Made by a program: the position numbers and the translations under genes | The notes under the pieces: model-generated | Told to the model about the DNA's origin: nothing | The model's input: only the letters and a program-made list of their open reading frames with translations | Database searches by the model: none | Part shown: one piece after another, positions 1 to 10,852 of the stretch | Numbering within the stretch: position 1 is the first letter of the stretch | Layout: each line of letters opens with the position of its first letter | Source: a virus | Taxonomy: Duplodnaviria > Heunggongvirae > Uroviricota > Caudoviricetes | Direction: 5' to 3' (one strand) | IMG/VR virus record: IMGVR_UViG_2737471839_000006 | Location: 1 to 12,249 of that record | DNA length: 12,249 nt

Positions 1-109
1 CACCACCCCGTCAGTAGCTGAACAGGAGGGACAGCTGATAGAAACAGAAGCCACTGGAGCACCTCAAAAACACCATCATACACTAAATCAGTAAGTTGGC
101 AGCATCACC
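1..109 (-). mobile_element. IS1 terminal segment, including the terminal inverted repeat; the element continues beyond the window start and includes the first codons of insA on the minus strand
   Basis: Positions 1..109 are the exact reverse complement of the IS1 left end as I recall it (GGTGATGCTGCCAACTTACTGATTTAGTGTATGATGG...GACGGGGTGGTG). The terminal repeat ends at 109 (..CAGCATCACC), where the sequence turns abruptly AT-rich. Recognised from memory, not searched. Confidence 0.85.
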
Positions 110-337
110 CGGGGAACTATAACAATGTTTCTAGCTTGGTGCTGTATGAATTAGTGAATTAGTAGGGAATATATCCACACATTGATTAACACAAAAATAT
201 TTCAGATATTAAATGTAACTCAAAGGATGAGTAATAATGGTTGTGTAGCGTATAACAGGATGCTGAGGTAGTATTAAACAATGAATAAATCTGATTGACA
301 AGCACCAGATAATACTGCGGGTCAATCATTAGACATG

Positions 338-372
338 AACGCCACTAGTTACTGAGAGTAACTAATGGCGTT
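338..372. repeat. Near-perfect 16-bp inverted repeat (AACGCCACTAGTTACT-gag-AGTAACTAATGGCGTT, 15/16), a possible 3' stem-loop or protein-binding site downstream of the HD gene
   Basis: Read directly; one C/A mismatch. It sits 43-77 bp downstream of the minus-strand stop at 415..417. A second AT-rich hairpin (GATGTTTT-ttt-AAAACATC, 387..405) lies between the stop and this palindrome. Confidence 0.4.
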
Positions 373-414
373 GTGTTTATAGTTAAGATGTTTTTTTAAA
401 ACATCAGGGGGGCT

Positions 415-1962
415 CTACTTGTCTTTTTTAATATGTTCAATCTCATCATTAAGACATTTATCTATTTTTTTTATTAACACATTAATTTCTTCGGTGTTTT
501 GGAGTTGAGTTGTCTTAGAAACAAAAACTCGAATAAAGAATTTAACATAGTGATAGGGTTGAAGTACATCGTTATACTTACATAAATCATTTATTGTATA
601 CTTGCCGCCTGTTTCTTTTTTTATTATTTTAGCTTGACTTGTATCGATATCTTTAAAGTTATCTTCAATCTGAAAATCAAGAACCCATTCATCTCCTTTT
701 AAATTATCCTCAATGATTTTGTTGATTTTCTTAGATATATTTTGTTTATATTCTTTGTATCTGTTGTCGGAAATGTTAACATTAGAAAACGTGTGTTTTT
801 TTTCATATATTTTTTTCCAAACATTTCTATCAACAATATCTTGAATTATAGCTTGAGAATTTTTATCTAATGTGTTTTTAAGAGTGTTTTCTAAAAACGT
901 TTTGTCTGGGTTTTCACGATAAAAGTGTTTGATGGACTCAATGAGAGTGTTTTTAGATTTTAAAGAGACAACATCATCAGTTTTTTTTCTAGAACACGCT
1001 TTGTTAAGCATCGCAGATAGTGCACGATTGGTCTTATGAAAATAAACTTGACTATAAAGCCCACTTCTTGCATTGGCAAATTCTAGTATTGAATCCATAC
1101 CACTTTCTTTATATGCCAGGTAAACACTATTTTCAACTTTCACAGGAATAAATGACATTAATAATCGTCCATAATCATAAATCCCATATTTAACGCCGGA
1201 GAAGTAGCTATCTCTAAGTAGGTAGTCCATTCTGTCCGCATCTATAGGTGAAGATGATATGATTGAACCTAATAAAGGATATACATTTACTCCCTCAATG
1301 TTATTTTTAAAATCATATCTTTTATCAACAATTTTTATAATGCTTTCTGGATTAATAGCCGCTATGTTTTCTTTATAGACATCGTCGTCATTTGATTTAT
1401 CTTGGGCTTCATTTTTTAATTCTTCAATAATTTCTTTAATAAAAATACATGATACTTGTTCGTGGGTTAACTTGTCATTATCACTTAAAGATATAATCTT
1501 ATCGTATTGTTTATTTCCTTCAGTTTTGCATTTTTCTTTGAAATCTTTTACGGATATTGCAAAACTATCGAATTGGTGGGCAAGTGGGCCATGCCCAACA
1601 TCGTGTAACAATGCTGCAATACGTAACTCCTGTATAAGACTTGAAGGCATTTTTTTTATATCTAAATATAGATCAATGCCCATATTTTTTCGGTCATAAA
1701 TTAATGCATTCAAATTTATATTTTTCAAAATCTCATACGATAAATGCATTACACCGACAGAGTGTTCAAAGCGAGAGTGCATTGCAGAAGGAAATACTTT
1801 ATATAGAAACGTGTTCTGCCTGATATCTCGTAGTCGTTGGAATAAAGGATGGTCAATTATCTTTTTTTCTAGCTTAGTTATTCGAATCACTCCATGTATG
1901 GGATCTAAAAACTTCCCCAGAAGTAAGTCTTCAAAGTTCTCAAGTTTGTTTTTGTTTGTCAT
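415..1962 (-). CDS. SAMHD1-like HD-domain dNTP triphosphohydrolase (515 aa)
   Basis: Uninterrupted 515-aa ORF with ATG start at 1962..1960 preceded by AAGGAAAG. HD-superfamily motifs are all present: DPIHG (aa 21-24), RFEHS (aa 64-68), LLHDVGHGPLAH (aa 118-129), THEQ (aa 166-169), DADRMDYLLRD (aa 241-251). Spacing and flanking residues parallel human SAMHD1 as I recall it. Very AT-rich with K/N/I-rich codon usage, unlike the flanking prophage genes. Confidence 0.85.
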   Translation of the reverse strand: MTNKNKLENFEDLLLGKFLDPIHGVIRITKLEKKIIDHPLFQRLRDIRQNTFLYKVFPSAMHSRFEHSVGVMHLSYEILKNINLNALIYDRKNMGIDLYLDIKKMPSSLIQELRIAALLHDVGHGPLAHQFDSFAISVKDFKEKCKTEGNKQYDKIISLSDNDKLTHEQVSCIFIKEIIEELKNEAQDKSNDDDVYKENIAAINPESIIKIVDKRYDFKNNIEGVNVYPLLGSIISSSPIDADRMDYLLRDSYFSGVKYGIYDYGRLLMSFIPVKVENSVYLAYKESGMDSILEFANARSGLYSQVYFHKTNRALSAMLNKACSRKKTDDVVSLKSKNTLIESIKHFYRENPDKTFLENTLKNTLDKNSQAIIQDIVDRNVWKKIYEKKHTFSNVNISDNRYKEYKQNISKKINKIIEDNLKGDEWVLDFQIEDNFKDIDTSQAKIIKKETGGKYTINDLCKYNDVLQPYHYVKFFIRVFVSKTTQLQNTEEINVLIKKIDKCLNDEIEHIKKDK

Positions 1963-2023
1963 GAGGCTTTCCTTTTGCTGTAGTTATAATACGAAATTTA
2001 AATAGTAATGATGTTTATAGTTT

Positions 2024-2052
2024 CAATGTGTTATCTAATGGTTAACACATTG
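2024..2052. promoter_or_regulatory. Perfect 10-bp inverted repeat CAATGTGTTA-N9-TAACACATTG, a putative operator or promoter element 62-90 bp upstream of the HD gene start
   Basis: Read directly. On the minus strand the right arm ends in TTGAAA, which could serve as a -35 element. The 10-mer TTCAATGTGT (2022..2031) recurs at 3873..3882 upstream of the second island gene. Confidence 0.45.
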
Positions 2053-2321
2053 TGATGTAGCATATCAATATGGATTCATATGTTCAATTGGTCTGTGGAG
2101 TTTAGTTATGAATAAGATTGATTCTGGTAATACTTTGTAGTTTAAGCTAGAGGCGGGATTCGTGATGTTCAAATCAGTATGTAATGGAGGTTGTGCATTA
2201 GTACTTGCTGCTGGAAATTAAAAATAAAGTTGCAAGTAATCGACGTTTTCCGAGAGGAGGATGTAAGCATCGCTGACCAAAAAGTATCAACGATGCCTGT
2301 TTTGTTTTAACTACAAATTAA

Positions 2322-3824
2322 TTAAATTGCATCTGCAAACTCTGTGATTTTTCGCTCAAGTATGATTGATGAGTTGCTGTTGTCGATTTTTTTATTTTCA
2401 TGATTACGAATAGCCAATGACTCATTAAAGTCTTTTGCGACTGCTGTCTCAATAAATTCAATTTCTGAATCAGAGTGTTTTTTAACAGCTTCTTTGATCT
2501 CATCCAGAGTAACATAGAAAAACTCTTTTCTACGATTTACAAGATTGACTCTCTTTTTATCGAAGACATCATGTAGTTTTTTTTCTAATGATGGAGCGTC
2601 CTCCGAATAAATCATGGCATGCACATCAAAAATAAAAGGAACAGATGCATCACCAAGCTCATTTACACGGTCTTGTGGATCAAGACGTCGTGTCATGCCT
2701 ATTTTATAAACATTCTCCCCAAAAGAACCTATGTTCGAAATAATATAAACATGACCTTGTTTGGTTTGTTGTGCCATGGATAATGCTCTTTGATGCTTTG
2801 ATTCAGCCTGCGACAAACTCTGTTCTAGTTCGGCAATGCGATTTTCGAGGCGCTGCTTCATGTCACCAGTAACTTTTTCCATTTCCTTTCTTGCAGCTTC
2901 AATTGCTTTTTTATAACGGCGCTCTTCTGCCTCTGCGTCTTGCATGGCCTTTTCTATTTCTCGTTGTGCACGCTCCTCCTCTCTCATTTGTGCCCTTATT
3001 TCTGCCTGTTCTTCTTTTTCTTTCTGTTTTTGCTCACGATATTCATGGGTAAGCCACAACTCCTCAAGTTTTTTATTAAGGTATTTAGTATTTATATATA
3101 TGTGATTTTGCTCGTTTAGTTTATTTATGGCCTCAAATGCCTTTGTGATGCGTTCTTCCATTTTAGTGATATTTTTCCACGTGCAATTACTAATTGCAGC
3201 ATCACATTCATTATTAAATGCTCTAGTAGTTAGCCTAATATTTCTGTCTGTCATTTTTTTACCCTCTGCTCGAGAGCCTTCAACAGTCCATTGGGTTGTG
3301 CAATATACTGCACCAGAGTGGGTTTTATCCCGCAGCATTAATTTCTGTTCATCCCTGATGGATTTTATTTTGTTTTTAAATTGCTCTGAATCTTCAAAAT
3401 TAAAATGAGGTTCGTAAAATCCTAGTTCGGCTAGTTCAACATCTTCTGAATAAATAGAAATTTGCTTTACTAGCTTATCATATATTTCTTTCTTCTCTTT
3501 ATAAGTTCTTCTTAGTTCTTGGATTTGTTTATTGATACCATCCATTTTTTCAATGGTGTTTGTTAGTTCATTATTGGCATTTTCTTTTACTTTTTGGGAC
3601 TCTTCTTTTATAATGGAGCATTCTTGCTCTGTTTTCTCAATAAGCTTCTTACATTCCTCTTCCACATTAAAATAATCTGCAAAGCGAGATTTGTATTCTT
3701 CATTTTTTTGATTGCTATCACTTAATTCTAATTGTATTTTTTTGATGCGTTTGATTGCAGCTATATATAGAACAAGAACAACCAATAAAAATATGATTGC
3801 AAGTAATAGTGGAGTTTGAGTCAT
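2322..3824 (-). CDS. Membrane-anchored coiled-coil protein with C-terminal T5orf172/MUG113-type (GIY-YIG superfamily) domain; middle region resembles DUF4041 (500 aa)
   Basis: 500-aa ORF with ATG at 3824..3822 and GGAA upstream. N-terminal hydrophobic helix (LLLAIIFLLVVLVLYIAAI, aa 5-24). Long E/K/Q/R-rich heptad-like segments (aa ~30-130 and ~250-350). C-terminal block GHVYIISNIGSFGENVYKIGMTRR...PFIFDVHAMIYSEDAPSLEKKLHDVFDKKRV...RKEFFYV (aa ~357-440; nt ~2505..2756) matches the T5orf172 signature as I recall it. AT-rich like the HD gene. Confidence 0.85.
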   Translation of the reverse strand: MTQTPLLLAIIFLLVVLVLYIAAIKRIKKIQLELSDSNQKNEEYKSRFADYFNVEEECKKLIEKTEQECSIIKEESQKVKENANNELTNTIEKMDGINKQIQELRRTYKEKKEIYDKLVKQISIYSEDVELAELGFYEPHFNFEDSEQFKNKIKSIRDEQKLMLRDKTHSGAVYCTTQWTVEGSRAEGKKMTDRNIRLTTRAFNNECDAAISNCTWKNITKMEERITKAFEAINKLNEQNHIYINTKYLNKKLEELWLTHEYREQKQKEKEEQAEIRAQMREEERAQREIEKAMQDAEAEERRYKKAIEAARKEMEKVTGDMKQRLENRIAELEQSLSQAESKHQRALSMAQQTKQGHVYIISNIGSFGENVYKIGMTRRLDPQDRVNELGDASVPFIFDVHAMIYSEDAPSLEKKLHDVFDKKRVNLVNRRKEFFYVTLDEIKEAVKKHSDSEIEFIETAVAKDFNESLAIRNHENKKIDNSNSSIILERKITEFADAI

Positions 3825-3872
3825 TCGTGCTATTCCTTACGGACAATTTAAGACGTTTTGTATTAAATCCTG

Positions 3873-3882
3873 TTCAATGTGT
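3873..3882. promoter_or_regulatory. Second copy of the 10-mer TTCAATGTGT, 49-58 bp upstream of the start of the 500-aa gene
   Basis: Read directly; identical to 2022..2031. On the minus strand it reads ACACATTGAAC, again ending in a -35-like TTGAAC. Confidence 0.35.
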
Positions 3883-4152
3883 ATGCGGGTGATTGCTACC
3901 GCTTACAATCTTCATAATTATCAGTTAGATAGACTCGCTAGTAAATAATTTCATTTTTTGCAATATTCTTATTGAATATTTCAATTTATGAAATGAACTC
4001 TTTATCCTTTCAAGGCGAAAGGTTTCTTCTTCGGAAATATTTGCTCTCGTGTGACGTATAAAGGCCTTTGATTTTTAAAAAACAGTAGGGAATAATATAG
4101 TTACTGTCGGCCTGAACACCCGGCGGTGGGGTTGCGCTAAACGGGGACGTTT

Positions 4153-4254
4153 ATGCGCACATACAATCTAAACTCTCTTCTCCCTTCACAGATGCAGAAA
4201 TGCACCTGCGATTTTTTGCATCCAACGTTTGACCTCTGCGGAGGTGAAGCGTGA
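4153..4254 (+). CDS. ylcH: Small 33-aa ORF, YlcH-like, overlapping the ybcN start by 4 nt
   Basis: ATG at 4153 translates to [33 protein letters not shown] and stops within GTGA, which also supplies the ybcN start. Size and position match my recollection of ylcH in DLP12. Too short for the ORF track; hand-translated. Confidence 0.4.
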
Positions 4255-4706
4255 ACCTACCACAAGATGGCATCAAATTACATCGCGGCAACTTCACCGC
4301 TATCGGCCAGCAGATCCAGCCTTATCTGGAGGACGGAAAATGCTTTCGCATGGTGCTTAAACCGTGGCGTGAGAAACGCAGTCTTTCCCAGAATGCACTC
4401 AGCCACATGTGGTACAGCGAAATCAGTGAATACCTTATCAGCAGGGGGAAATCGTTCGCTACCGCAGCATGGGTAAAAGAAGCTCTCAAACACACATACC
4501 TCGGTTATGAAACCAAAGAACTGGTTGATGTCGTAACCGGTGAAATCACCACTATCCAGTCGTTACGCCATACCTCCGATCTTGATGCCGGAGAGATGTA
4601 TGTCTTCCTGTGTAAGGTTGAAGCCTGGGCGATGAATATTGGCTGCCACCTGACTATTCCGCAGAGCTGCGAGTTCCAGCTGCTGCGCGACAAGCAGGAG
4701 GCGTAA
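4251..4706 (+). CDS. ybcN: NinB-family protein (YbcN-like), 151 aa, GTG start
   Basis: ORF track 4251..4706. GGAGGTG sits 5 nt upstream of the GTG. The sequence [19 protein letters not shown]...[18 protein letters not shown] matches the DLP12 YbcN/NinB family as I recall it (lambda NinB has the analogous RSLDQN block). Confidence 0.9.
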
Positions 4707-4876
4707 TGGCTACACCGCTTATTCGTGTCATGAACGGACACATCTACAGAGTACCAAATCGTCGTAAGCGTAAACCTGAGCTGAAGCCATCCGAAATACC
4801 AACACTGCTCGGATATACCGCCAGCCTGGTTGATAAAAAATGGTTGCGACTGGCAGCAAGGAGGAATCATGGCTGA
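4706..4876 (+). CDS. ninE: NinE-family small protein (56 aa)
   Basis: ATG overlaps the ybcN stop (TAATG). Hand translation gives [56 protein letters not shown]. Below the ORF-track size cutoff. Confidence 0.7.
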   Translation: MATPLIRVMNGHIYRVPNRRKRKPELKPSEIPTLLGYTASLVDKKWLRLAARRNHG

Positions 4877-5159
4877 TTTGAGAAAAGCAGCGCGTGGTCG
4901 GGAATGCCAGGTAAGAATCCCTGGCGTATGTAATGGCAACCCTGAAACGTCTGTACTGGCACATATCCGGCTGACTGGATTGTGCGGCACCGGTACCAAA
5001 CCGCCAGACCTGATTGCCACCATTGCATGTTCTGCCTGCCACGACGAAATCGACCGCCGCACACATTTTGTCGATGCCGCATATGCAAAAGAATGCGCGC
5101 TGGAAGGTATGGCGAGAACGCAGGTTATCTGGCTGAAAGAGGGGGTAATCAAGGCGTGA
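4869..5159 (+). CDS. ybcO: YbcO-like putative nuclease (Cys-rich, 96 aa from ATG at 4869)
   Basis: Track ORF 4830..5159 begins at a TTG; the ATG at 4869 is preceded by AGGAGGAA and gives 96 aa ([23 protein letters not shown]...), the size I recall for DLP12 YbcO. Conserved Cys/His residues (C..C..C..H) are present. Confidence 0.75.
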
Positions 5160-5518
5160 ATACCTACAACATCACATTACCCTGGCCGCCTAGCAATAAC
5201 CGCTACTACCGGCATAATCGCGGGCGCACACACATCAGCGCAGAAGGGCAGGCATACCGCGATAACGTCGCCCGAATCATTAAAAACGCAATGCTGGATA
5301 TCGGCCTGGCTATTCCTGTAAAAATCCGCATTGAGTGCCACATGCCGGATCGCCGTCGCCGTGACCTGGATAATCTGCAAAAAGCCGCTTTTGACGCACT
5401 CACCAAAGCAGGTTTCTGGCTGGATGATGTTCAGGTCGTTGATTACCGTGTTGTGAAGATGCCCGTTACCAAAGGTGGGAAGCTGGAGTTGACCATCACC
5501 GAACTGGGGAATGAATGA
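5156..5518 (+). CDS. rusA: RusA Holliday-junction resolvase (120 aa, GTG start overlapping the ybcO stop)
   Basis: Track ORF 4982..5518 is a 5'-extended frame; GTG at 5156 (within GCGTGAAT) gives [23 protein letters not shown]...[25 protein letters not shown], which I recognise as RusA. Confidence 0.9.
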
Positions 5519-5655
5519 TGTTTGAGTCTTATATGGCAGAACGTCTTCGCCACCGCTGGATGCGCCTGCGCTTATATCGTTTCCCCGGTTCTGTTTTGAC
5601 CGATTACCGAATACTGAAGAGTTACGCCAAAACCCTGACAGGAGCAGGAGTATGA
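5515..5655 (+). CDS. ylcG: YlcG-like small protein (46 aa)
   Basis: ATGATG start overlaps the rusA stop (AATGAATGATG). Hand translation gives [46 protein letters not shown]. Below the track cutoff. Confidence 0.55.
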
Positions 5656-5740
5656 AGTCAGAGATAACAACCAACTAATACTGTTTTGTTGATTTTTGCT
5701 TGTAATTGGCGTTCTGGTCTGAGTTTTGTGGAGTAAGTTG

Positions 5741-6124
5741 ATGCGTGATATTCAGATGGTTCTTGAGCGTTGGGGAGCGTGGGCGGCTAATAATCATGAA
5801 GATGTGACCTGGTCGTCCATTGCCGCCGGTTTTAAGGGATTAATTACTTCAAAAGTAAAATCTCGCCCGCAATGTTGTGACGATGACGCGATGATCATTT
5901 GCGGGTGCATGGCCCGTCTGAAAAAGAACAACAGCGATTTGCACGATTTATTAGTAGATTATTATGTAGTCGGTATGACATTCATGTCACTGGCAGGTAA
6001 GCATTGCTGCTCTGATGGTTATATCGGGAAAAGGTTACAGAAGGCTGAGGGCATAATTGAAGGGATGTTAATGGCATTAGATATCCGGTTAGAGATGGAT
6101 ATCGTTGTTAATAACTCTAATTAA
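5741..6124 (+). CDS. quuD: Late-gene antiterminator Q (QuuD-like, 127 aa)
   Basis: Track ORF 5726..6124 starts at an upstream TTG; the ATG at 5741 gives 127 aa ([24 protein letters not shown]...) with Cys clusters ([18 protein letters not shown]) typical of Q-family antiterminators. Position after rusA/ylcG and before the lysis genes is as expected. Confidence 0.85.
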
Positions 6125-6157
6125 TATGCCAATTGTTTACTAAAAATTATTAAAAAT

Positions 6158-6175
6158 GGGGCGTTGAGACGCCCC
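6158..6175 (-). terminator. GC hairpin (GGGGCGT-tgag-ACGCCCC) followed on the minus strand by ATTTTTAATAATTTTT; candidate intrinsic terminator for minus-strand (nmpC) transcription
   Basis: Read directly. The T-rich tract is only on the minus-strand 3' side, 34 nt beyond the quuD stop. Confidence 0.4.
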
Positions 6176-6265
6176 CAAAAATAAAGGGTAATATATAACA
6201 GAAGGTTTATATAGTTAGAAGCAAGGTTGTGCTTCTAAAGGAAGTGGCTTGAGGGAGCCACTTAT

Positions 6266-6304
6266 ATGTTGGGGAGGCAACGCCTCCCGCAACATATCTT
6301 TTTC
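6266..6304 (+). terminator. tR'-like intrinsic terminator candidate (GGGAGGC-aac-GCCTCCC within an extended imperfect stem, then ATCTTTTTCG)
   Basis: Read directly. Lies about 140 nt downstream of quuD, where lambdoid phages place pR'/qut/tR'. Two further hairpins (6218..6237, 6244..6261) sit just upstream. Confidence 0.4.
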
Positions 6305-6313
6305 GTAATCAGA

Positions 6314-7411
6314 TTAGAACTGGTAAACCAGACCTACAGCAACGATGTCATCAGTGCTTACACCGAGTGCTTTAGTGAAGTCATTTTTGTCAAGCAGGTT
6401 GATTTTGTAATCAACGAAAGTAGACATATTTTTGTTGAAGTAATAGGTTGCACCTACATCAACATATTTGACTAAGTCCTGATCGCCCCATACTCCAAGA
6501 TCCTTACCTTTAGATTGCAGGTAAGCAACGGACGGACGCAGACCGAAATCGAACTGATATTGTGCAACAGCTTCGAAGTTTTGGGCTTTATTAGCAACGA
6601 AGTGATCAGCAAATACAGTCATATTCTGGGTTTCAGAATAGGTAGTGGCCAGGTAAATGTTGTTAGCATCATATTTCAGACCTGCGGCCCAAACTTCTGC
6701 ATTTTTACCGGAAGCAAATACTTCAGGAAGAACTTTCCCTGCATTAACTTGAGTGTCGGTACGATCAGATTTCGCATAAGTTGCACCGATACCGAATCCT
6801 TCGTATTCATAGGTAGCAGAGAAACCGAAGCCATCACCGTTACCTTCAGTGTAGTTATCGAAATCGCTACGATCGTTTTTGCCTTGGTACTGAGCAGCAA
6901 AGTTCAGACCATCAACCAGACCAAAGAAGTCGTTGTTACGATAGGTTGCAACACCAGTGGTGCGACCAGTCATGAACACATCTGTTTGGGTCCAGGTATC
7001 GCCACCGAATTCTGGCAGAACGTCAGTCCACGCACCGATGTCGTATGCTACACCGTAGTTACGGCCGTAATCGATTGAGCCGTAGTCACCGAATTTCAGG
7101 CCTGCAAATGCAAGACGGGTTTTGTCTTTGGAGGAACCTTGAGATTCAGCGCGGTTGCCTTTGAATTCATATTCCCACTGACCGAAACCAGTCAGTTGAT
7201 CGTTGATTTGGGTTTCACCTTTGAAGCCAAGACGGGCATAAGTAGTATCACCATCATCTGCATCATTAGAGGAGAAGTAGTGCTTAGCATTAACTTTCCC
7301 GTACAGATCCAGCTTGTTACTGTCTTTATTATAAATTTCAGCTGCCTGAGCAGACATCGCCATCAGTACTGATGCAGCTACAGCAGAAATTGCCACTGTT
7401 AATTTTTTCAT
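6314..7411 (-). CDS. nmpC: Outer-membrane general porin NmpC/OmpD-like, intact (365 aa with signal peptide)
   Basis: ORF track. N-terminal signal peptide [23 protein letters not shown] then AEIYNKD...; C-terminal ...AVGLVYQF, the typical porin terminal Phe. ATG is preceded by AAGGG. Recognised as the DLP12 porin gene, here without an IS interruption. Confidence 0.9.
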
Positions 7412-7840
7412 CGTGAGCCCTTTTTTTTGAACTATTATTAAAAAATGATGTCACTGCGCGATAAATATTCATCTAATCAATGTGATTATTTCAAGATGTA
7501 AGTTTTGGTTTCTCGTTTGATTTGTGAAGTAGATCTCTATTTTTATCTGAACTTTTTTCTATCGAATCCTATTCATAGCTCTTGGCTGAATAAAAATAAA
7601 TCTATTAGCCAATTTATATTAACGACTGTTATTTATAAGTGCTCTATAATTTGAAGGTTCAATTTAAATCGGCTAAAAATAACACTGGAAATTATTTGTT
7701 GGTTATTTGTTGAGGTTTTCTTATGTATTTGTGGTGGTGTTTTGAACACTCGGTAGCATTCTCGCAAATATCATTTAGTGGTTTACGTACGTAAAAAATT
7801 GGTTATGCTGTTAAGAGTGGTTACTTCGTCACACAGCTTA

Positions 7841-7873
7841 AACCCGCCGTCGAGCGGGTTTTTCCATTTTTTG
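7841..7873 (+). terminator. Intrinsic terminator candidate about 110 bp upstream of the holin gene (AACCCGC-cgtcga-GCGGGTT then TTTCCATTTTTTG)
   Basis: Read directly; the T-tract is on the plus strand only. Confidence 0.55.
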
Positions 7874-7984
7874 AGTCTCGATATTAGCTGATAACCCAAT
7901 ACCTGAGTTATTCACTGACTCCGAGTCTGTTACGTTTCGTAGTATTCCCTCAATTTACACCCGCTTTGTCTGCGAGGTGGGGTT

Positions 7985-8200
7985 ATGAAATCCATGGATA
8001 AGTTAACAACGGGTGTCGCCTATGGCACCTCAGCAGGTAGTGCCGGGTACTGGTTTTTACAGCTGCTAGATAAAGTCACGCCCTCACAGTGGGCGGCAAT
8101 TGGAGTGCTGGGTAGCCTGGTATTTGGCCTGCTGACGTACCTGACAAACCTTTATTTCAAGATTAAAGAAGACAAGCGTAAGGCTGCACGGGGAGAGTAA
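7985..8200 (+). CDS. essD: Class II pinholin, phage 21 S21-like (71 aa) with dual-start motif MKSM
   Basis: ORF track. [71 protein letters not shown] is near-identical to S21 as I recall it; two TM segments; Met1/Met4 dual start. Confidence 0.9.
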
Positions 8201-8204
8201 TTCA

Positions 8205-8549
8205 ATGACTCAAAACTATGAACTGATTGTGAAAGGGATCCGCAATTTTGAGAATAAAGTTACGGTAACTTTAGCGTTACGGGACAAAAAACGCTTTGAC
8301 GGTGAAATTTTTGACCTGGACATCTCGCTGGACCGTGTTGAAGGTGCCGCGCTGGAGTTTTATGAGGCAGCAGCCAGAAGGAGCATCAGACAGGTCTTCC
8401 TGGATGTTGCTGCCGGGTTATGTGAAGGGGATGAGCTGTCGCCGGAAAAGCGCCCCATAATTTTAGAGGCGCAGAATGTGTGGATAACCTACAAAGGAAA
8501 GCTACCGGGAAGAATTACTGGTTCTCTGAAGACTCCGCCGAAATGGTAA
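8205..8549 (+). CDS. Hypothetical protein (114 aa) inserted between holin and endolysin; no family recognised
   Basis: ORF track. ATG at 8205 lies 5 nt after the holin stop, with GGAGAG 7 nt upstream, so it is positioned for co-expression with late genes. No motif I can assign. Confidence 0.6.
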   Translation: MTQNYELIVKGIRNFENKVTVTLALRDKKRFDGEIFDLDISLDRVEGAALEFYEAAARRSIRQVFLDVAAGLCEGDELSPEKRPIILEAQNVWITYKGKLPGRITGSLKTPPKW

Positions 8550-8787
8550 TTTCACCAGCATATTTTTCTTCCAGTAATACCGCCAGCCACTTGAAAGAAT
8601 TTTGTTGTTGCTGGGACCATTTGGGGTTGAGTGATTCAAGCTGGAGCGATGCCAGTGTTGGTTGCATTTGTTCCTTGGGAATTGAGAATGCCAGATATGA
8701 AAATGCGACAGTAAGGGCATTTACATCATCCCGAAGCCTGGAAATGCAGTCGAGCAACTCCTGTAGAGAAATGGTGCTATTGTCCAT
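8515..8787 (-). CDS. Hypothetical protein (~90 aa), convergent with and overlapping the 3' end of the 8205..8549 gene
   Basis: Track ORF 8515..8793 starts at a TTG; the in-frame ATG at 8787 is preceded by GAGAGGA at 6-nt spacing on the minus strand. Ordinary Leu/Gln-rich composition; no recognisable family. Confidence 0.5.
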   Translation of the reverse strand: MDNSTISLQELLDCISRLRDDVNALTVAFSYLAFSIPKEQMQPTLASLQLESLNPKWSQQQQNSFKWLAVLLEEKYAGEITISAESSENQ

Positions 8788-8892
8788 AAACAATCCTCTC
8801 TATTGTATTTAACTATTCCTTGCCTGATTCAACAGGCCGGGACAGATAAACATATCCAGGGTTCAGAAACCGATAAATCCTGATAAATATCC

Positions 8893-10082: not shown

Positions 10083-10580
10083 ATGAAATCATTAACCCTC
10101 TTCAATCAACCAATTCGTATCGGTGAAGATGGCATGATCTGCCTCACTGACATGTGGAAAGCTAGTGGTAAAAGTGAATCTGAATCGCCGTACCACTATC
10201 TGCGAAACAAGCAGACCAAAGAGTTCTTAGCCGAGCTGGAGAAAAACCACGAATCTGTGGTTTTTACTGAGCGCGGTGTACACGGTGGAACATATGGCGG
10301 GAAGTTTGTTGCTTACGATTATGCGGCTTGGTTAAACCCCGGGTTCAAGTACGCGGCCTATAAAGTCCTCGATGACTACTTCACCGGAGAACTTCAGCAT
10401 CGCAACAGCTTAAGTGCGCAGCTCAACATGAAATGTCATGAGTTTGACCAGAAGAAAGACATGGCGAGCTTCTGCGGACAAGGGCTGGCAGCATGGCGCT
10501 ATACGAAGCCAGTGTTGGTCGCTGAGATTAACTCCCTGGCTAACCAGCTGCAGATTACGATCCCCGGGCTTCCGGGATGA
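10083..10580 (+). CDS. KilA-N domain protein (165 aa)
   Basis: ORF track. The N-terminal region (..FTERGVHGGTYGGKFVAYDYAAWLNPGFKYAAYKVLDDYF) has the aromatic/AxWLxPxF pattern I associate with KilA-N DNA-binding domains. Confidence 0.75.
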   Translation: MKSLTLFNQPIRIGEDGMICLTDMWKASGKSESESPYHYLRNKQTKEFLAELEKNHESVVFTERGVHGGTYGGKFVAYDYAAWLNPGFKYAAYKVLDDYFTGELQHRNSLSAQLNMKCHEFDQKKDMASFCGQGLAAWRYTKPVLVAEINSLANQLQITIPGLPG

Positions 10581-10852
10581 GTGATCGTGTCATTGAATGC
10601 GCCTCCAGAGCGGGGCGCGACTTCTCAGAGTTCATGAAAGGCGAGAAGGGCATGATGGAAGCATTGGCCTCGGTGGATGAGTTTGGCGAGCAGCTGCGCC
10701 TCAACGGCTGTGTCAATCATCACTTTGTTAGCTACATGATGCGGAACTCGATCATGCAGGCATTCATGGACATGGCAAAAGCCGAGAGGAAAGAAGAGCG
10801 CCGGCATAAGCGAGCGGAAGCAAAAGCAAAAGCAAAAGCAAAAGTGAAGTAG
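10577..10852 (+). CDS. Hypothetical protein (91 aa) with basic C-terminal (AK)n tail; start overlaps the KilA-N stop
   Basis: ORF track; ATGA overlap at 10577..10580 suggests translational coupling. Confidence 0.6.
   Translation: MSDRVIECASRAGRDFSEFMKGEKGMMEALASVDEFGEQLRLNGCVNHHFVSYMMRNSIMQAFMDMAKAERKEERRHKRAEAKAKAKAKVK
10820..10843 (+). repeat. (GCAAAA)x4 perfect tandem hexanucleotide repeat encoding AKAKAKAK
   Basis: Read directly, within the 3' end of the 10577..10852 ORF. Confidence 0.8.

Follow-up and report, generated by a model that had tools for sequence, protein, structure and literature searches.

An intact NmpC/Lc porin cassette with an IpeX-type 3' region between the Q gene and the probable late promoter of a lambdoid prophage

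The ORF that lies antisense between the antiterminator gene Q and the lysis genes in the stretch of viral DNA analyzed here (12,249 nucleotides of IMG/VR record IMGVR_UViG_2737471839_000006, hereafter the window) represents, in its intact form, the NmpC/Lc porin cassette that has long been known from lambdoid prophages of the DLP12/PA-2 type. Taking the structural features of the locus together (Table 1), we consider with good confidence that an intact and autonomous NmpC/Lc and IpeX cassette has been inserted between Q and the promoter on which Q acts.

Table 1. Features of the porin cassette and of the neighboring Q, late promoter, and lysis genes (window positions).
Feature	Position	Strand	Evidence and remarks
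Late-gene antiterminator Q (quuD type, 127 aa)	5741..6124	+	Pfam Phage_antitermQ, E=3.5e-53
Structured 3' UTR of the porin mRNA, IpeX regulatory RNA region (~167 nt)	6147..6313	-	Identity to K-12 and PA-2; fold
Predicted intrinsic terminator of the porin/IpeX transcript	6148..6175	-	Stem 6158-6175 with T-run, GGGGCGTCTCAACGCCCC then ATTTTTAATA; terminator scan and fold
Hairpin, candidate terminator for rightward transcripts from Q	6264..6304	+	Stem 6264-6297, ATATGTTGGGGAGGC-AAC-GCCTCCCGCAACATAT then CTTTTT; adjoins the end of nmpC; putative function
nmpC/lc porin ORF	6314..7411	-	Intact; 365-aa precursor with 23-aa signal peptide
TTAG, target site of IS5B in K-12 nmpC	6372..6375		Single and unbroken in the window, after about codon 346; K-12 junctions compared
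Conserved 5' UTR and proximal regulatory region of the porin	7412..7560	-	92-98% invariant columns, 7 relatives
Sigma-E-like promoter motif (tGAACTa, 16 bases, TCACT)	7428..7455	+	Appears to match the published DLP12 lysis-operon promoter essDp, judging from amplicon coordinates
Late promoter pR', 933W/QuuD type	7782..7809	+	-35 TTTACG (7782-7787), 16-bp spacer, -10 TATGCT (7804-7809); predicted start near 7816
Near-invariant initially transcribed block, candidate Q-utilization and pause region	7810..7839	+	GTTAAGAGTGGTTACTTCGTCACACAGCTT; covers the 933W 'qut' feature; putative function
Leader terminator, tR' candidate	7840..7872	+	AAACCCGCCGTCGAGCGGGTTT then TTCCATTTTTT; stem 7840-7861 and T-run; terminator scan; homologous to the first terminator after 933W pR'
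Holin S (essD), first late/lysis gene	7985..8200	+	Pfam Phage_holin_2_1, E=2e-35; annotations of relatives

The porin gene and its relatives

The ORF list of the window gives an uninterrupted reading frame of 365 aa for the porin, on the strand opposite to both Q and S. In the profile search, Pfam Porin_1 spanned the protein over the full model (1-337/337, E=1e-156, 522 bits; cut-off, 23.7 bits), and the score for the OmpC subfamily model of NCBIfam, NF007841, was 526.5 bits, above its cut-off of 484 bits. The scores for the PhoE and OmpF equivalog models were below the cut-offs of those models. Among the PDB matches, the solved structures closest to the protein were those of OmpC and OmpK36, at E about 1e-135. 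The PA-2 lc record carries a sig_peptide annotation with which residues 1-23 agree exactly, and by this comparison they were assigned as the signal peptide; the C-terminus (...GLVYQF) carries the aromatic residue for outer-membrane assembly. A full-length 16-stranded domain, a signal peptide, and a C-terminal aromatic residue are the features of a general bacterial porin, and the preliminary description of nmpC as complete, with 365 aa and a signal peptide, was confirmed in each respect.

The near identity of the protein to Lc and NmpC, together with the antisense site between Q and the lysis genes, assigns it to the NmpC/Lc prophage porins. Lc of phage PA-2 (GenBank J02580; Blasband et al. 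1986) is identical at 363/365 residues (99%), has the same 23-aa signal peptide, and differs from the porin of the window at two residues (R99H and V154F, in Lc). The lc gene also has the same position and orientation beside the lysis genes, and the DNA identity to the PA-2 record is 97.6% over window positions 6087-8201 (97.9% over 6087-8187 by megablast). The differences are found in the leader just upstream of S, where there is a 16-17-bp indel and the identity over 7873-7984 is 84%, and in the prophage around the cassette.

The cryptic prophage DLP12 (qsr') of E. coli K-12 shares the Q (quuD)-nmpC-essD layout with the window, and the DNA identity is 96-98% over window positions 4067-8201. 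The Q protein (100% identical to QuuD), the IpeX region, and the pR' module (100% in pR' itself) are all identical in the two. To the left of 4067, the window contains a different AT-rich block with a PD-Lambda-1 defense gene, whereas K-12 has ybcK-ybcM. The first fragment of K-12 nmpC is 97.7% identical in DNA to the window gene. According to the K-12 annotation, nmpC of strain MG1655 contains IS5B, and the annotations of both K-12 and phage 434B read 'IS5 insertion after codon 346'. The preliminary description was thus correct in that an IS element interrupts nmpC in DLP12. The alignment to K-12 that it had proposed bears out the absence of the element here: the DLP12 gene is split after about codon 346 with a duplication of TTAG, whereas the window gene is full length and its TTAG is uninterrupted.

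The chromosomal porins OmpC, OmpD, and OmpK36 belong to the same fold family and contain a full-length Porin_1 domain; the porin of the window differs from them in its gene, which lies in the late region of a prophage and has a phage-specific 3' UTR. A count by DNA coverage, which is blind to frameshifts and may join IS-split copies, found 80% or more of the cassette in ~2500/5426 complete E. coli genomes, and this level was also reached in 36 phage records, with many inducible phages among the carriers. Nearly half of the complete E. coli genomes are carriers at this level of coverage. One more intact copy of NmpC/Lc is in itself nothing new; the cassette is already known and represents textbook lysogenic conversion.

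Flanking regions and expression of the porin

The spacer between Q and nmpC is identical at 189/189 bp to those of both K-12 DLP12 and PA-2. IpeX is a 167-nt RNA of DLP12 that is part of the porin transcript from the porin promoter and represses OmpC and OmpF (PMC12197685; PMC5069750). The sequence described as IpeX (Castillo-Keller et al. 2006) occupies the same place, between the stop codon of nmpC/lc and a Rho-independent terminator; it is common to DLP12 and PA-2, and the window sequence is identical to both. The span in Table 1, from the nmpC stop codon to the T-run of the terminator, was chosen to match the published 167 nt. An Rfam scan of the whole window gave no match, and the identification as IpeX therefore rests on the 100% sequence identity to K-12 and PA-2. 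This match of the spacer had been overlooked in an earlier reading of the sequence. The region is predicted to fold into four to five stem-loops (MFE -63.4 kcal/mol, z = -9.2), and the seven relatives differ at too few hairpin positions, mainly in loops, for covariation to be assessed. In the window, as in PA-2, IpeX would be the 3'-terminal part of an uninterrupted porin mRNA, whereas in K-12 IS5 parts IpeX from the porin promoter.

The terminator scan found three terminator-like matches, a number not above the 2.4 expected from shuffled sequences; despite this shuffle-level count, the sequence flanking the porin gene on its 3' side is very strongly structured, as indicated by the z-score above. 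Of the terminators that the preliminary description had placed on both flanks of the porin, the structured 3' end with its predicted terminator stands. On the 5' side, the hairpin at 7840-7861 is more reasonably regarded as a terminator of the late leader than as an insulator of the porin, because the pR' module lies to the right of the cassette.

The 573-bp spacer upstream of the porin (7412-7984) had been described as an AT-rich region of about 570 bp that probably carries the porin promoter. It is AT-rich in its left part only, where the GC content is 0.29-0.38 (sliding windows starting at 7351-7651); from about 7800 the value is 0.48, and the description does not hold for this right part. 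The proximal region is conserved among the relatives and is 99.3% identical in PA-2, including the CRP site annotated in the lc record J02580, which maps to window positions 7520-7540. Consensus scans for an nmpC promoter found no strong sigma-70 site, only weak candidates such as TTGAAA-19-AATATT.

An intact nmpC gene does not prove expression. The porin could be transcriptionally silent in its host, a quiescent relic silenced, for example, via the AT-rich upstream region and of no benefit to the lysogen under ordinary conditions. The low upstream GC content and the lack of a consensus promoter would be consistent with silencing, and Prilipov et al. 1998, in their title, apply the word 'quiescent' to the nmpC porin gene of E. 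coli B. However, functional phages and thousands of genomes conserve the ORF together with its proximal upstream region and 3' UTR, and clinical E. coli isolates yielded a proteome spot annotated as NmpC (PMC2947995). The coding region, in which 40-80% of the columns are invariant in the alignment of the seven relatives, varies mostly in discrete segments with the reading frame retained, a pattern that fits a functioning gene better than one in decay. In addition, Lc is reportedly made by PA-2 lysogens (Schnaitman and colleagues; Castillo-Keller et al. 2006). On balance, we regard a silent porin as rather unlikely.

The late promoter and the course of late transcription

The Q protein of the window is 78% identical to Q of phage 933W, and the homology of the window with the Q regions of 933W and Lambda_ev087 stops at about 6073-6100. 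The pR'-qut-terminator module annotated in 933W has its sole homologue in the window at 7782-7872, with the match covering 7781-7863, and this site lies on the right-hand side of the porin cassette. The promoter aligns with the annotated 933W pR', with which it shares the -35 element TTTACG, the 16-bp spacer, and a -10 element of the form TATNNT; downstream, the two phages also share the near-invariant leader TAAGAGTGGTTAC...CAC.CAG and the hairpin AACCCGCCG...CGCGGGTTTT. The initially transcribed block is conserved across the window, 933W, SfII, and PhiR40_1, and the whole pR' module, unlike the variable porin coding region, is invariant in the seven porin-bearing relatives. The promoter and terminator at 7782-7872 are thus homologous to those of a related Q. 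They do not directly follow Q: the 933W pR' overlaps the last codons of Q, whereas that of the window lies beyond the porin cassette, at a distance of 1.66 kb from the stop codon of Q. Since this Q family and the pR' module still co-occur, the module should work like the canonical cassette despite the spacing.

Downstream of the shared hairpin, a second terminator (+258) and then tRNA and stx genes are found in 933W, whereas in the window a leader of ~115 nt runs from the hairpin straight to S. A 258-nt PR' transcript has been reported for Stx phages (PMC7547250), in agreement with the 933W promoter annotation, in which the -10 element ends at 20693 and the second terminator at 20957. The Stx-phage homologue of the hairpin at 7840-7861 evidently passes RNA polymerase on to the second terminator at +258, and the efficiency of the candidate tR' in the window is uncertain. 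Q of the window is only weakly related to the structurally solved Q21 (E = 7e-7 over 80 residues), too weakly for the published details of the Q21 binding site to be transferred to it.

According to the preliminary description, Q-dependent late transcription towards S would have to traverse about 1.1 kb antisense to nmpC. This proposal is not supported by the present results. The only 933W-type module lies to the right of the cassette, a promoter scan of the plus strand at 6100-6320 found no promoter-like site, and the same stretch contains the plus-strand hairpin and T-run at 6264-6304. Close behind Q, the sequence GTTTAC...TAAAAATT (6136-6150) is similar to the -35 element and spacer of pR'; as a possible remnant of a late promoter it was rejected, being short, AT-rich, and devoid of a -10 element. 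The porin cassette most likely lies between Q and the late promoter, and late transcription need not cross nmpC because the 933W-type module and the putative +1 of essDp discussed below are both to the right of the gene.

Q may act on a promoter of the sigma-E type or of the 933W type, and both candidates are located to the right of nmpC. The Q-dependent lysis promoter might be the sigma-E-type motif at about 7428-7455, as for K-12 essDp, back to back with the nmpC start codon, and the module at 7782-7872 would then serve only as a terminator and Q-utilization region or as a second, sigma-70 promoter. The lysis operon of DLP12 has been described as being under the control of a Q-type antiterminator and RpoE, with the use of a reporter fragment given as '-121 to +650' (PMC7918800). 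The forward primer of this reporter maps to 7339, which sets the +1 near 7460 if the amplicon numbering is followed, and the GAACT-N17-TCACT motif at 7429-7455 is found in a stretch that is nearly invariant among the relatives. RpoE is also reported, in work by Rueggeberg et al. 2015, to transcribe essDp in vitro, with the -35 region being important for Q-dependent expression. However, the position of the +1 depends on the amplicon numbering, and the 933W-type sigma-70 promoter is kept with this Q family in contexts that lack the nmpC-proximal sequence (933W, SfII, PhiR40_1, and Stx1_499). Known Q proteins, moreover, are loaded on the sigma-70 holoenzyme while it pauses at a -10-like element (bioRxiv 10.1101/651190). 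We consider it improbable that the sigma-E-type motif is the target of Q; even if it is, nmpC would remain uncrossed, and the lysis promoter would overlap divergently with the 5' UTR and promoter region of the porin.

A late promoter directly after Q, as in the canonical lambdoid order, from which Q-modified RNA polymerase would read about 1.1 kb of antisense nmpC and the 570-bp spacer to reach S, is very unlikely: the textbook cassette indeed consists of the Q gene with PR', a pause element, and a terminator after it (bioRxiv 10.1101/651190), and the promoter-like and terminator-like stretch of Lambda_ev087, right after a related Q and before an antisense lipocalin gene, indicates that an antisense gene can sit downstream of a possible pR', but the Q-nmpC spacer of the window lacks a promoter-like site on the plus strand, carries a hairpin with a T-run on that strand, and is explained by the IpeX/terminator region, while the only cognate homologue of 933W pR' is the invariant module at 7782-7872 and antisense cargo lies between Q and the pR' module in five independent genomes, including the window. 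With the cassette placed upstream of the late promoter, late transcription is not bound by the layout to collide with the porin gene, and the lack of collision removes the sole possibly mechanistically interesting feature of the finding.

Cargo between Q and pR'

Morons, in the sense of Hendrix and colleagues, are autonomous cargo genes in phage genomes. The porin cassette resembles such a gene in that it separates elements that are otherwise adjacent: the pR' module directly follows Q in 933W and 1720a-02, and the two are 1.7 kb apart in the window. The cassette also has a predicted intrinsic terminator of its own on the minus strand (6148-6175). For its own promoter, the conserved proximal region and the CRP site annotated in PA-2 are present, without a consensus sigma-70 site.

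We infer promoter use, Q dependence, termination, and the expression of the porin and IpeX in this strain as follows. In the order of the minus strand, an AT-rich regulatory region (7412 to ~7560) would be followed by the porin gene (7411..6314), the IpeX-type 3' UTR (6313 to ~6147), and the terminator (6175..6148). In the lysogen, transcription of the cassette would start at a promoter of its own. The product, predicted to be a general porin of the OmpC/OmpD-like type with a signal peptide, would enter the outer membrane, and the IpeX part of the transcript would lower OmpC and OmpF, as in the PA-2/DLP12 literature. Q would act in trans on pR', and the late transcripts would begin downstream of nmpC and run away from it. 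The prophage would thereby give its host a new major porin and turn down OmpC and OmpF via IpeX, with a change in phage-receptor availability and permeability.

The gap between Q and pR' contains one to three antisense ORFs in SfII, PhiR40_1, phi467, and Stx1_499. The sequenced genome of phage 434B carries the Q-nmpC::IS5-S block of K-12, with about 2.9 kb from Q to the pR' module. The phages Lambda_ev087 and IdasGreatGrand present another arrangement, in which promoter-like and terminator-like sequence comes after a related Q, along with an antisense lipocalin gene; no 933W-type module was found there, including the stretch between Q and S of Lambda_ev087 (Q 85% identical). The cargos in the gap are unrelated to each other: the porin and IpeX in the window, a candidate defense pair (PDC-M53) in SfII, and unknown ORFs in PhiR40_1, phi467, and Stx1_499. 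We tentatively propose, as a possibility that we hold to be less probable than its opposite, that in lambdoid phages of the QuuD/Q933W type the gap from Q to the late promoter is a reusable and transcriptionally insulated slot for antisense cargo, a pattern that rests on five genomes and may already be implicit in the literature. The slot may be bounded on the right by pR' and on the left, at least in the window, by the candidate terminator for Q transcripts.

If this proposal is true, the lysogen would express cargo located upstream of pR', which late transcription would not over-run, and sense cargo downstream of pR', such as stx, would be Q-dependent. The position of a prophage cargo gene relative to pR' would then provide a rule predicting when the gene is expressed. 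The more modest general point is that the gap between Q and pR' is a recurrent site of antisense cargo in related phages.

The porin gene and its distribution

The window is a segment of a DLP12-like lambdoid prophage of E. coli, with the gene order ybcN, ninE, ybcO, rusA, ylcG and Q (late antiterminator), followed by the porin, holin, endolysin and spanin genes. As the preliminary description had stated, an uninterrupted porin gene lies antisense between Q and the holin gene S (essD) at the coordinates in the table. The Pfam domain Porin_1 is matched over its full length (1-337/337, E = 1e-156), the score exceeds the NCBIfam cut-off for the OmpC subfamily, and the nearest solved structures are OmpC and OmpK36. 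The protein is identical to Lc of the lambdoid phage PA-2 at 363 of 365 residues, and the DNA at 6087-8201 shows 97.6% identity to the PA-2 lc record J02580 of 1986 (97.9% over 6087-8187 by megablast). Both the intactness of the porin and its identity as Lc/NmpC are established.

Coordinates of the porin gene, its neighbours and the candidate late-promoter elements in the window
Feature	Position	Strand	Remarks
Q end	6124	+	
Porin ORF	6314..7411	-	365 aa, without interruption
SigmaE-like motif, tGAACTa, 16 bases, TCACT	7428-7455		Near the deduced +1; back to back with the nmpC start codon
pR' -35, TTTACG	7782-7787	+	933W alignment
pR' -10, TATGCT	7804-7809	+	After 16-bp spacer; 933W alignment
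Leader, GTTAAGAGTGGTTAC...CACACAGC	After -10	+	Near-invariant; 933W alignment
Hairpin AAACCCGCCGTCGAGCGGGTTT with T-run	7840-7872	+	933W alignment
Holin S start	7985	+	

The cryptic prophage DLP12 of K-12 MG1655 has the same layout, Q(quuD)-nmpC-essD, but its nmpC is split by IS5B, whereas that of the window is whole. The IS interruption of K-12 nmpC stated in the preliminary description was correct, and comparison of the junctions showed that the IS5 target TTAG is single in the window (6372-6375) and duplicated in K-12. By DNA coverage, a measure that is blind to frameshifts and may join IS-split copies, at least 80% of the cassette (the porin gene with its 3' UTR and upstream regulatory region) is present in 2500 of the 5426 complete E. 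coli genomes, and the complete Q-porin-S block in 36 phage records, including Perceval, D2, ev243, 2G7b and PhiR70_1. E. coli probably carries the cassette intact as a rule, the IS5 allele of K-12 being an exception that happened to be studied first. The feature corresponds to the Lc/NmpC porin cassette with IpeX, known from earlier work, as is the DLP12 lysis-operon regulatory region next to it; the finding of an intact porin is real but ordinary.

Among seven porin-bearing relatives aligned with the window, it is the porin coding sequence that varies (invariant columns make up 40-80% in 6350-6900); hardly any change is seen at the gene's 5' end, in the proximal upstream stretch or in the flanks. 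The variation falls into discrete segments (40-64% invariant columns in 6350-6399, 6450-6499, 6700-6749 and 6850-6899), a pattern that would fit diversification of surface loops. Some alleles encode 360 instead of 365 residues.

Flanking regions and expression of the porin

The 189 bp from the Q stop codon to the nmpC stop codon are 100% identical to K-12 and to PA-2. Castillo-Keller et al. 2006 reportedly placed ipeX in the interval from the nmpC stop codon to the Rho-independent terminator of that gene, with an identical copy downstream of PA-2 lc. On the minus strand the spacer is predicted to form four to five stem-loops (MFE -63.4 kcal/mol, z = -9.2 versus shuffles), the last being GGGGCGTCTCAACGCCCC followed by a T-run. 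The span from stop codon to T-run was chosen to fit the published 167 nt of IpeX, which has been assigned to this spacer region and represses OmpC and OmpF (PMC12197685; PMC5069750). Rfam contains no family matching the IpeX region. The plus-strand hairpin at 6264-6297, followed by CTTTTT, is a candidate terminator of transcription running out of Q; taken with the minus-strand T-run, it makes the convergent Q and porin units appear parted by terminators in both directions. The IpeX-identical 3' UTR, overlooked in the preliminary description, is established, as is the presence of predicted terminators.

The spacer at 7412-7984 had been described as AT-rich; this holds for its left two thirds (GC 0.29-0.38) and fails from about 7800, where GC is again 0.48. 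Within it, 7412-7560 is 92-98% invariant among the relatives, and a CRP site annotated in the PA-2 record maps to 7520-7540. A second annotated CRP site maps to 7816-7836; it falls within the conserved leader of pR' and more probably belongs to that element. Consensus scans of the minus strand gave no convincing sigma-70 promoter for the porin; activator-dependent promoters commonly lack a convincing consensus. Conservation, the PA-2 annotation and the literature point to a putative promoter of its own for the porin. The title of one paper terms nmpC quiescent in E. coli B, and a protein spot annotated as NmpC is present in published proteomes of clinical isolates.

A 933W-homologous late-promoter module downstream of the cassette

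The Q protein shares 78% identity with Q of the Stx phage 933W, whereas its relation to Q21, whose structure has been characterised, is only distant. A sensitive search with 7640-7990 as the query showed that 7781-7863 matches a stretch of 933W whose annotated features are the pR' promoter, qut and a terminator. In that annotation, the interval from the -10 end (20693) to the end of the second terminator (20957) agrees with the 258-nt PR' transcript of Stx phages (PMC7547250). When the window and 933W were compared by pairwise BLAST, only two blocks aligned, Q (5739-6073) and this module, which are 89 bp apart in 933W versus 1.7 kb in the window. The seven relatives show no variation at all in the module, and K-12 has an identical copy. 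Between its hairpin and S (7873-7984), a 16-17-bp indel polymorphism was observed: CTGCCTTTATTGCGATA is present in Perceval, D2, ev243, 2G7b and PA-2 and missing from the window, K-12 and PhiR70_1.

A second candidate promoter, essDp, appears to lie closer to the porin. The primary papers on DLP12 essDp reportedly describe RpoE-dependent transcription as well as Q dependence. The DLP12 lysis operon has been placed under a Q-type antiterminator and RpoE using a promoter fragment from -121 to +650 (PMC7918800). The forward primer of this fragment maps to 7339 and the reverse primer, which seems to contain two typing errors, into essD; these positions and the fragment numbering place +1 near 7460. 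Both candidate late promoters are located to the right of nmpC, and therefore late transcription need not cross the porin gene, whichever of them Q uses. The earlier placement of pR' directly after Q, with late transcription obligatorily antisense through nmpC, is not supported: the module lies at 7782-7872, and no promoter-like site was found on the plus strand at 6100-6320.

In the lysogen, leftward transcription of the cassette would begin in 7412-7560, probably aided by CRP, and end at about 6150; its products would be the porin and an RNA derived from the 3' UTR that would lower OmpC and OmpF. Upon induction, the early rightward transcript would supply Q, which would act in trans at pR', with a start near 7816, and take RNA polymerase past the hairpin into S.

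Cargo genes in the window and between Q and pR'

Homology to K-12 DLP12 starts only at 4067; positions 1-4066 form an AT-rich block (GC 0.26-0.39) in place of the K-12 ybcK-ybcM region. The block encodes a 500-aa protein (2322..3824, minus strand) with Pfam domains DUF4041 and T5orf172/MUG113 that matches the single-gene anti-phage defence PD-Lambda-1 over its full length (PADLOC PDLC03976, E = 5e-198). Beside it lies the gene of a 515-aa HD-domain protein (415..1962, minus strand; Pfam HD, E = 8e-7), which matches the PADLOC dGTPase marginally (E = 9e-4) and may be a further defence-type cargo gene. Holin and endolysin genes directly adjoin in K-12 DLP12, whereas in the window a YdfR/DUF1327 gene (8205..8549, plus strand, 114 aa) stands between them; its end is overlapped by a 92-aa ORF (8515..8793, minus strand), hypothetical in the annotation of strain J31, for which no family match was found. 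Downstream of the spanin genes are a KilA-N and ORF11CD3 domain protein (10083..10580, plus strand, 165 aa) and a lysine-rich ORF (10577..10852, plus strand, 91 aa). This site, occupied by borD in K-12, a GIY-YIG nuclease gene in strain J31 and the KilA-N/ORF11CD3 gene in the window, is another variable cargo site.

In Lambda_ev087 (L005 2919-3075, and L009), and likewise in IdasGreatGrand (L006), a Q protein with 85% identity to that of the window is directly followed by a promoter-like TTGCTG-17-TAATGT, a TAGAAT motif, a strong terminator and an antisense lipocalin (Blc) gene, and no 933W-type pR' module was found from Q to S.

In 933W and 1720a-02, the gap between Q and pR' holds no gene and Q abuts the module. 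The gap contains one minus-strand ORF in PhiR40_1, two in phi467, three in Stx1_499, and the porin with the IpeX region, also on the minus strand, in the window; no Pfam or PADLOC match was found for the antisense ORFs of PhiR40_1, phi467 and Stx1_499. The sequenced phage genome 434B carries the K-12 Q-nmpC::IS5-S block, with about 2.9 kb from Q to the module. In SfII, the slot of the porin cassette (L010 2582-4196) holds two minus-strand ORFs, SfII_49 and SfII_50, with matches to PDC-M53, a candidate defence pair in PADLOC (B, E = 2.8e-54; A, E = 2.1e-32). It is established that a 933W-homologous module lies downstream of the cassette and that antisense cargo recurs in the interval from Q to this module. 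The only new point, and a mildly new one, is that the Q-to-pR' gap recurs as an antisense cargo site, in five genomes.
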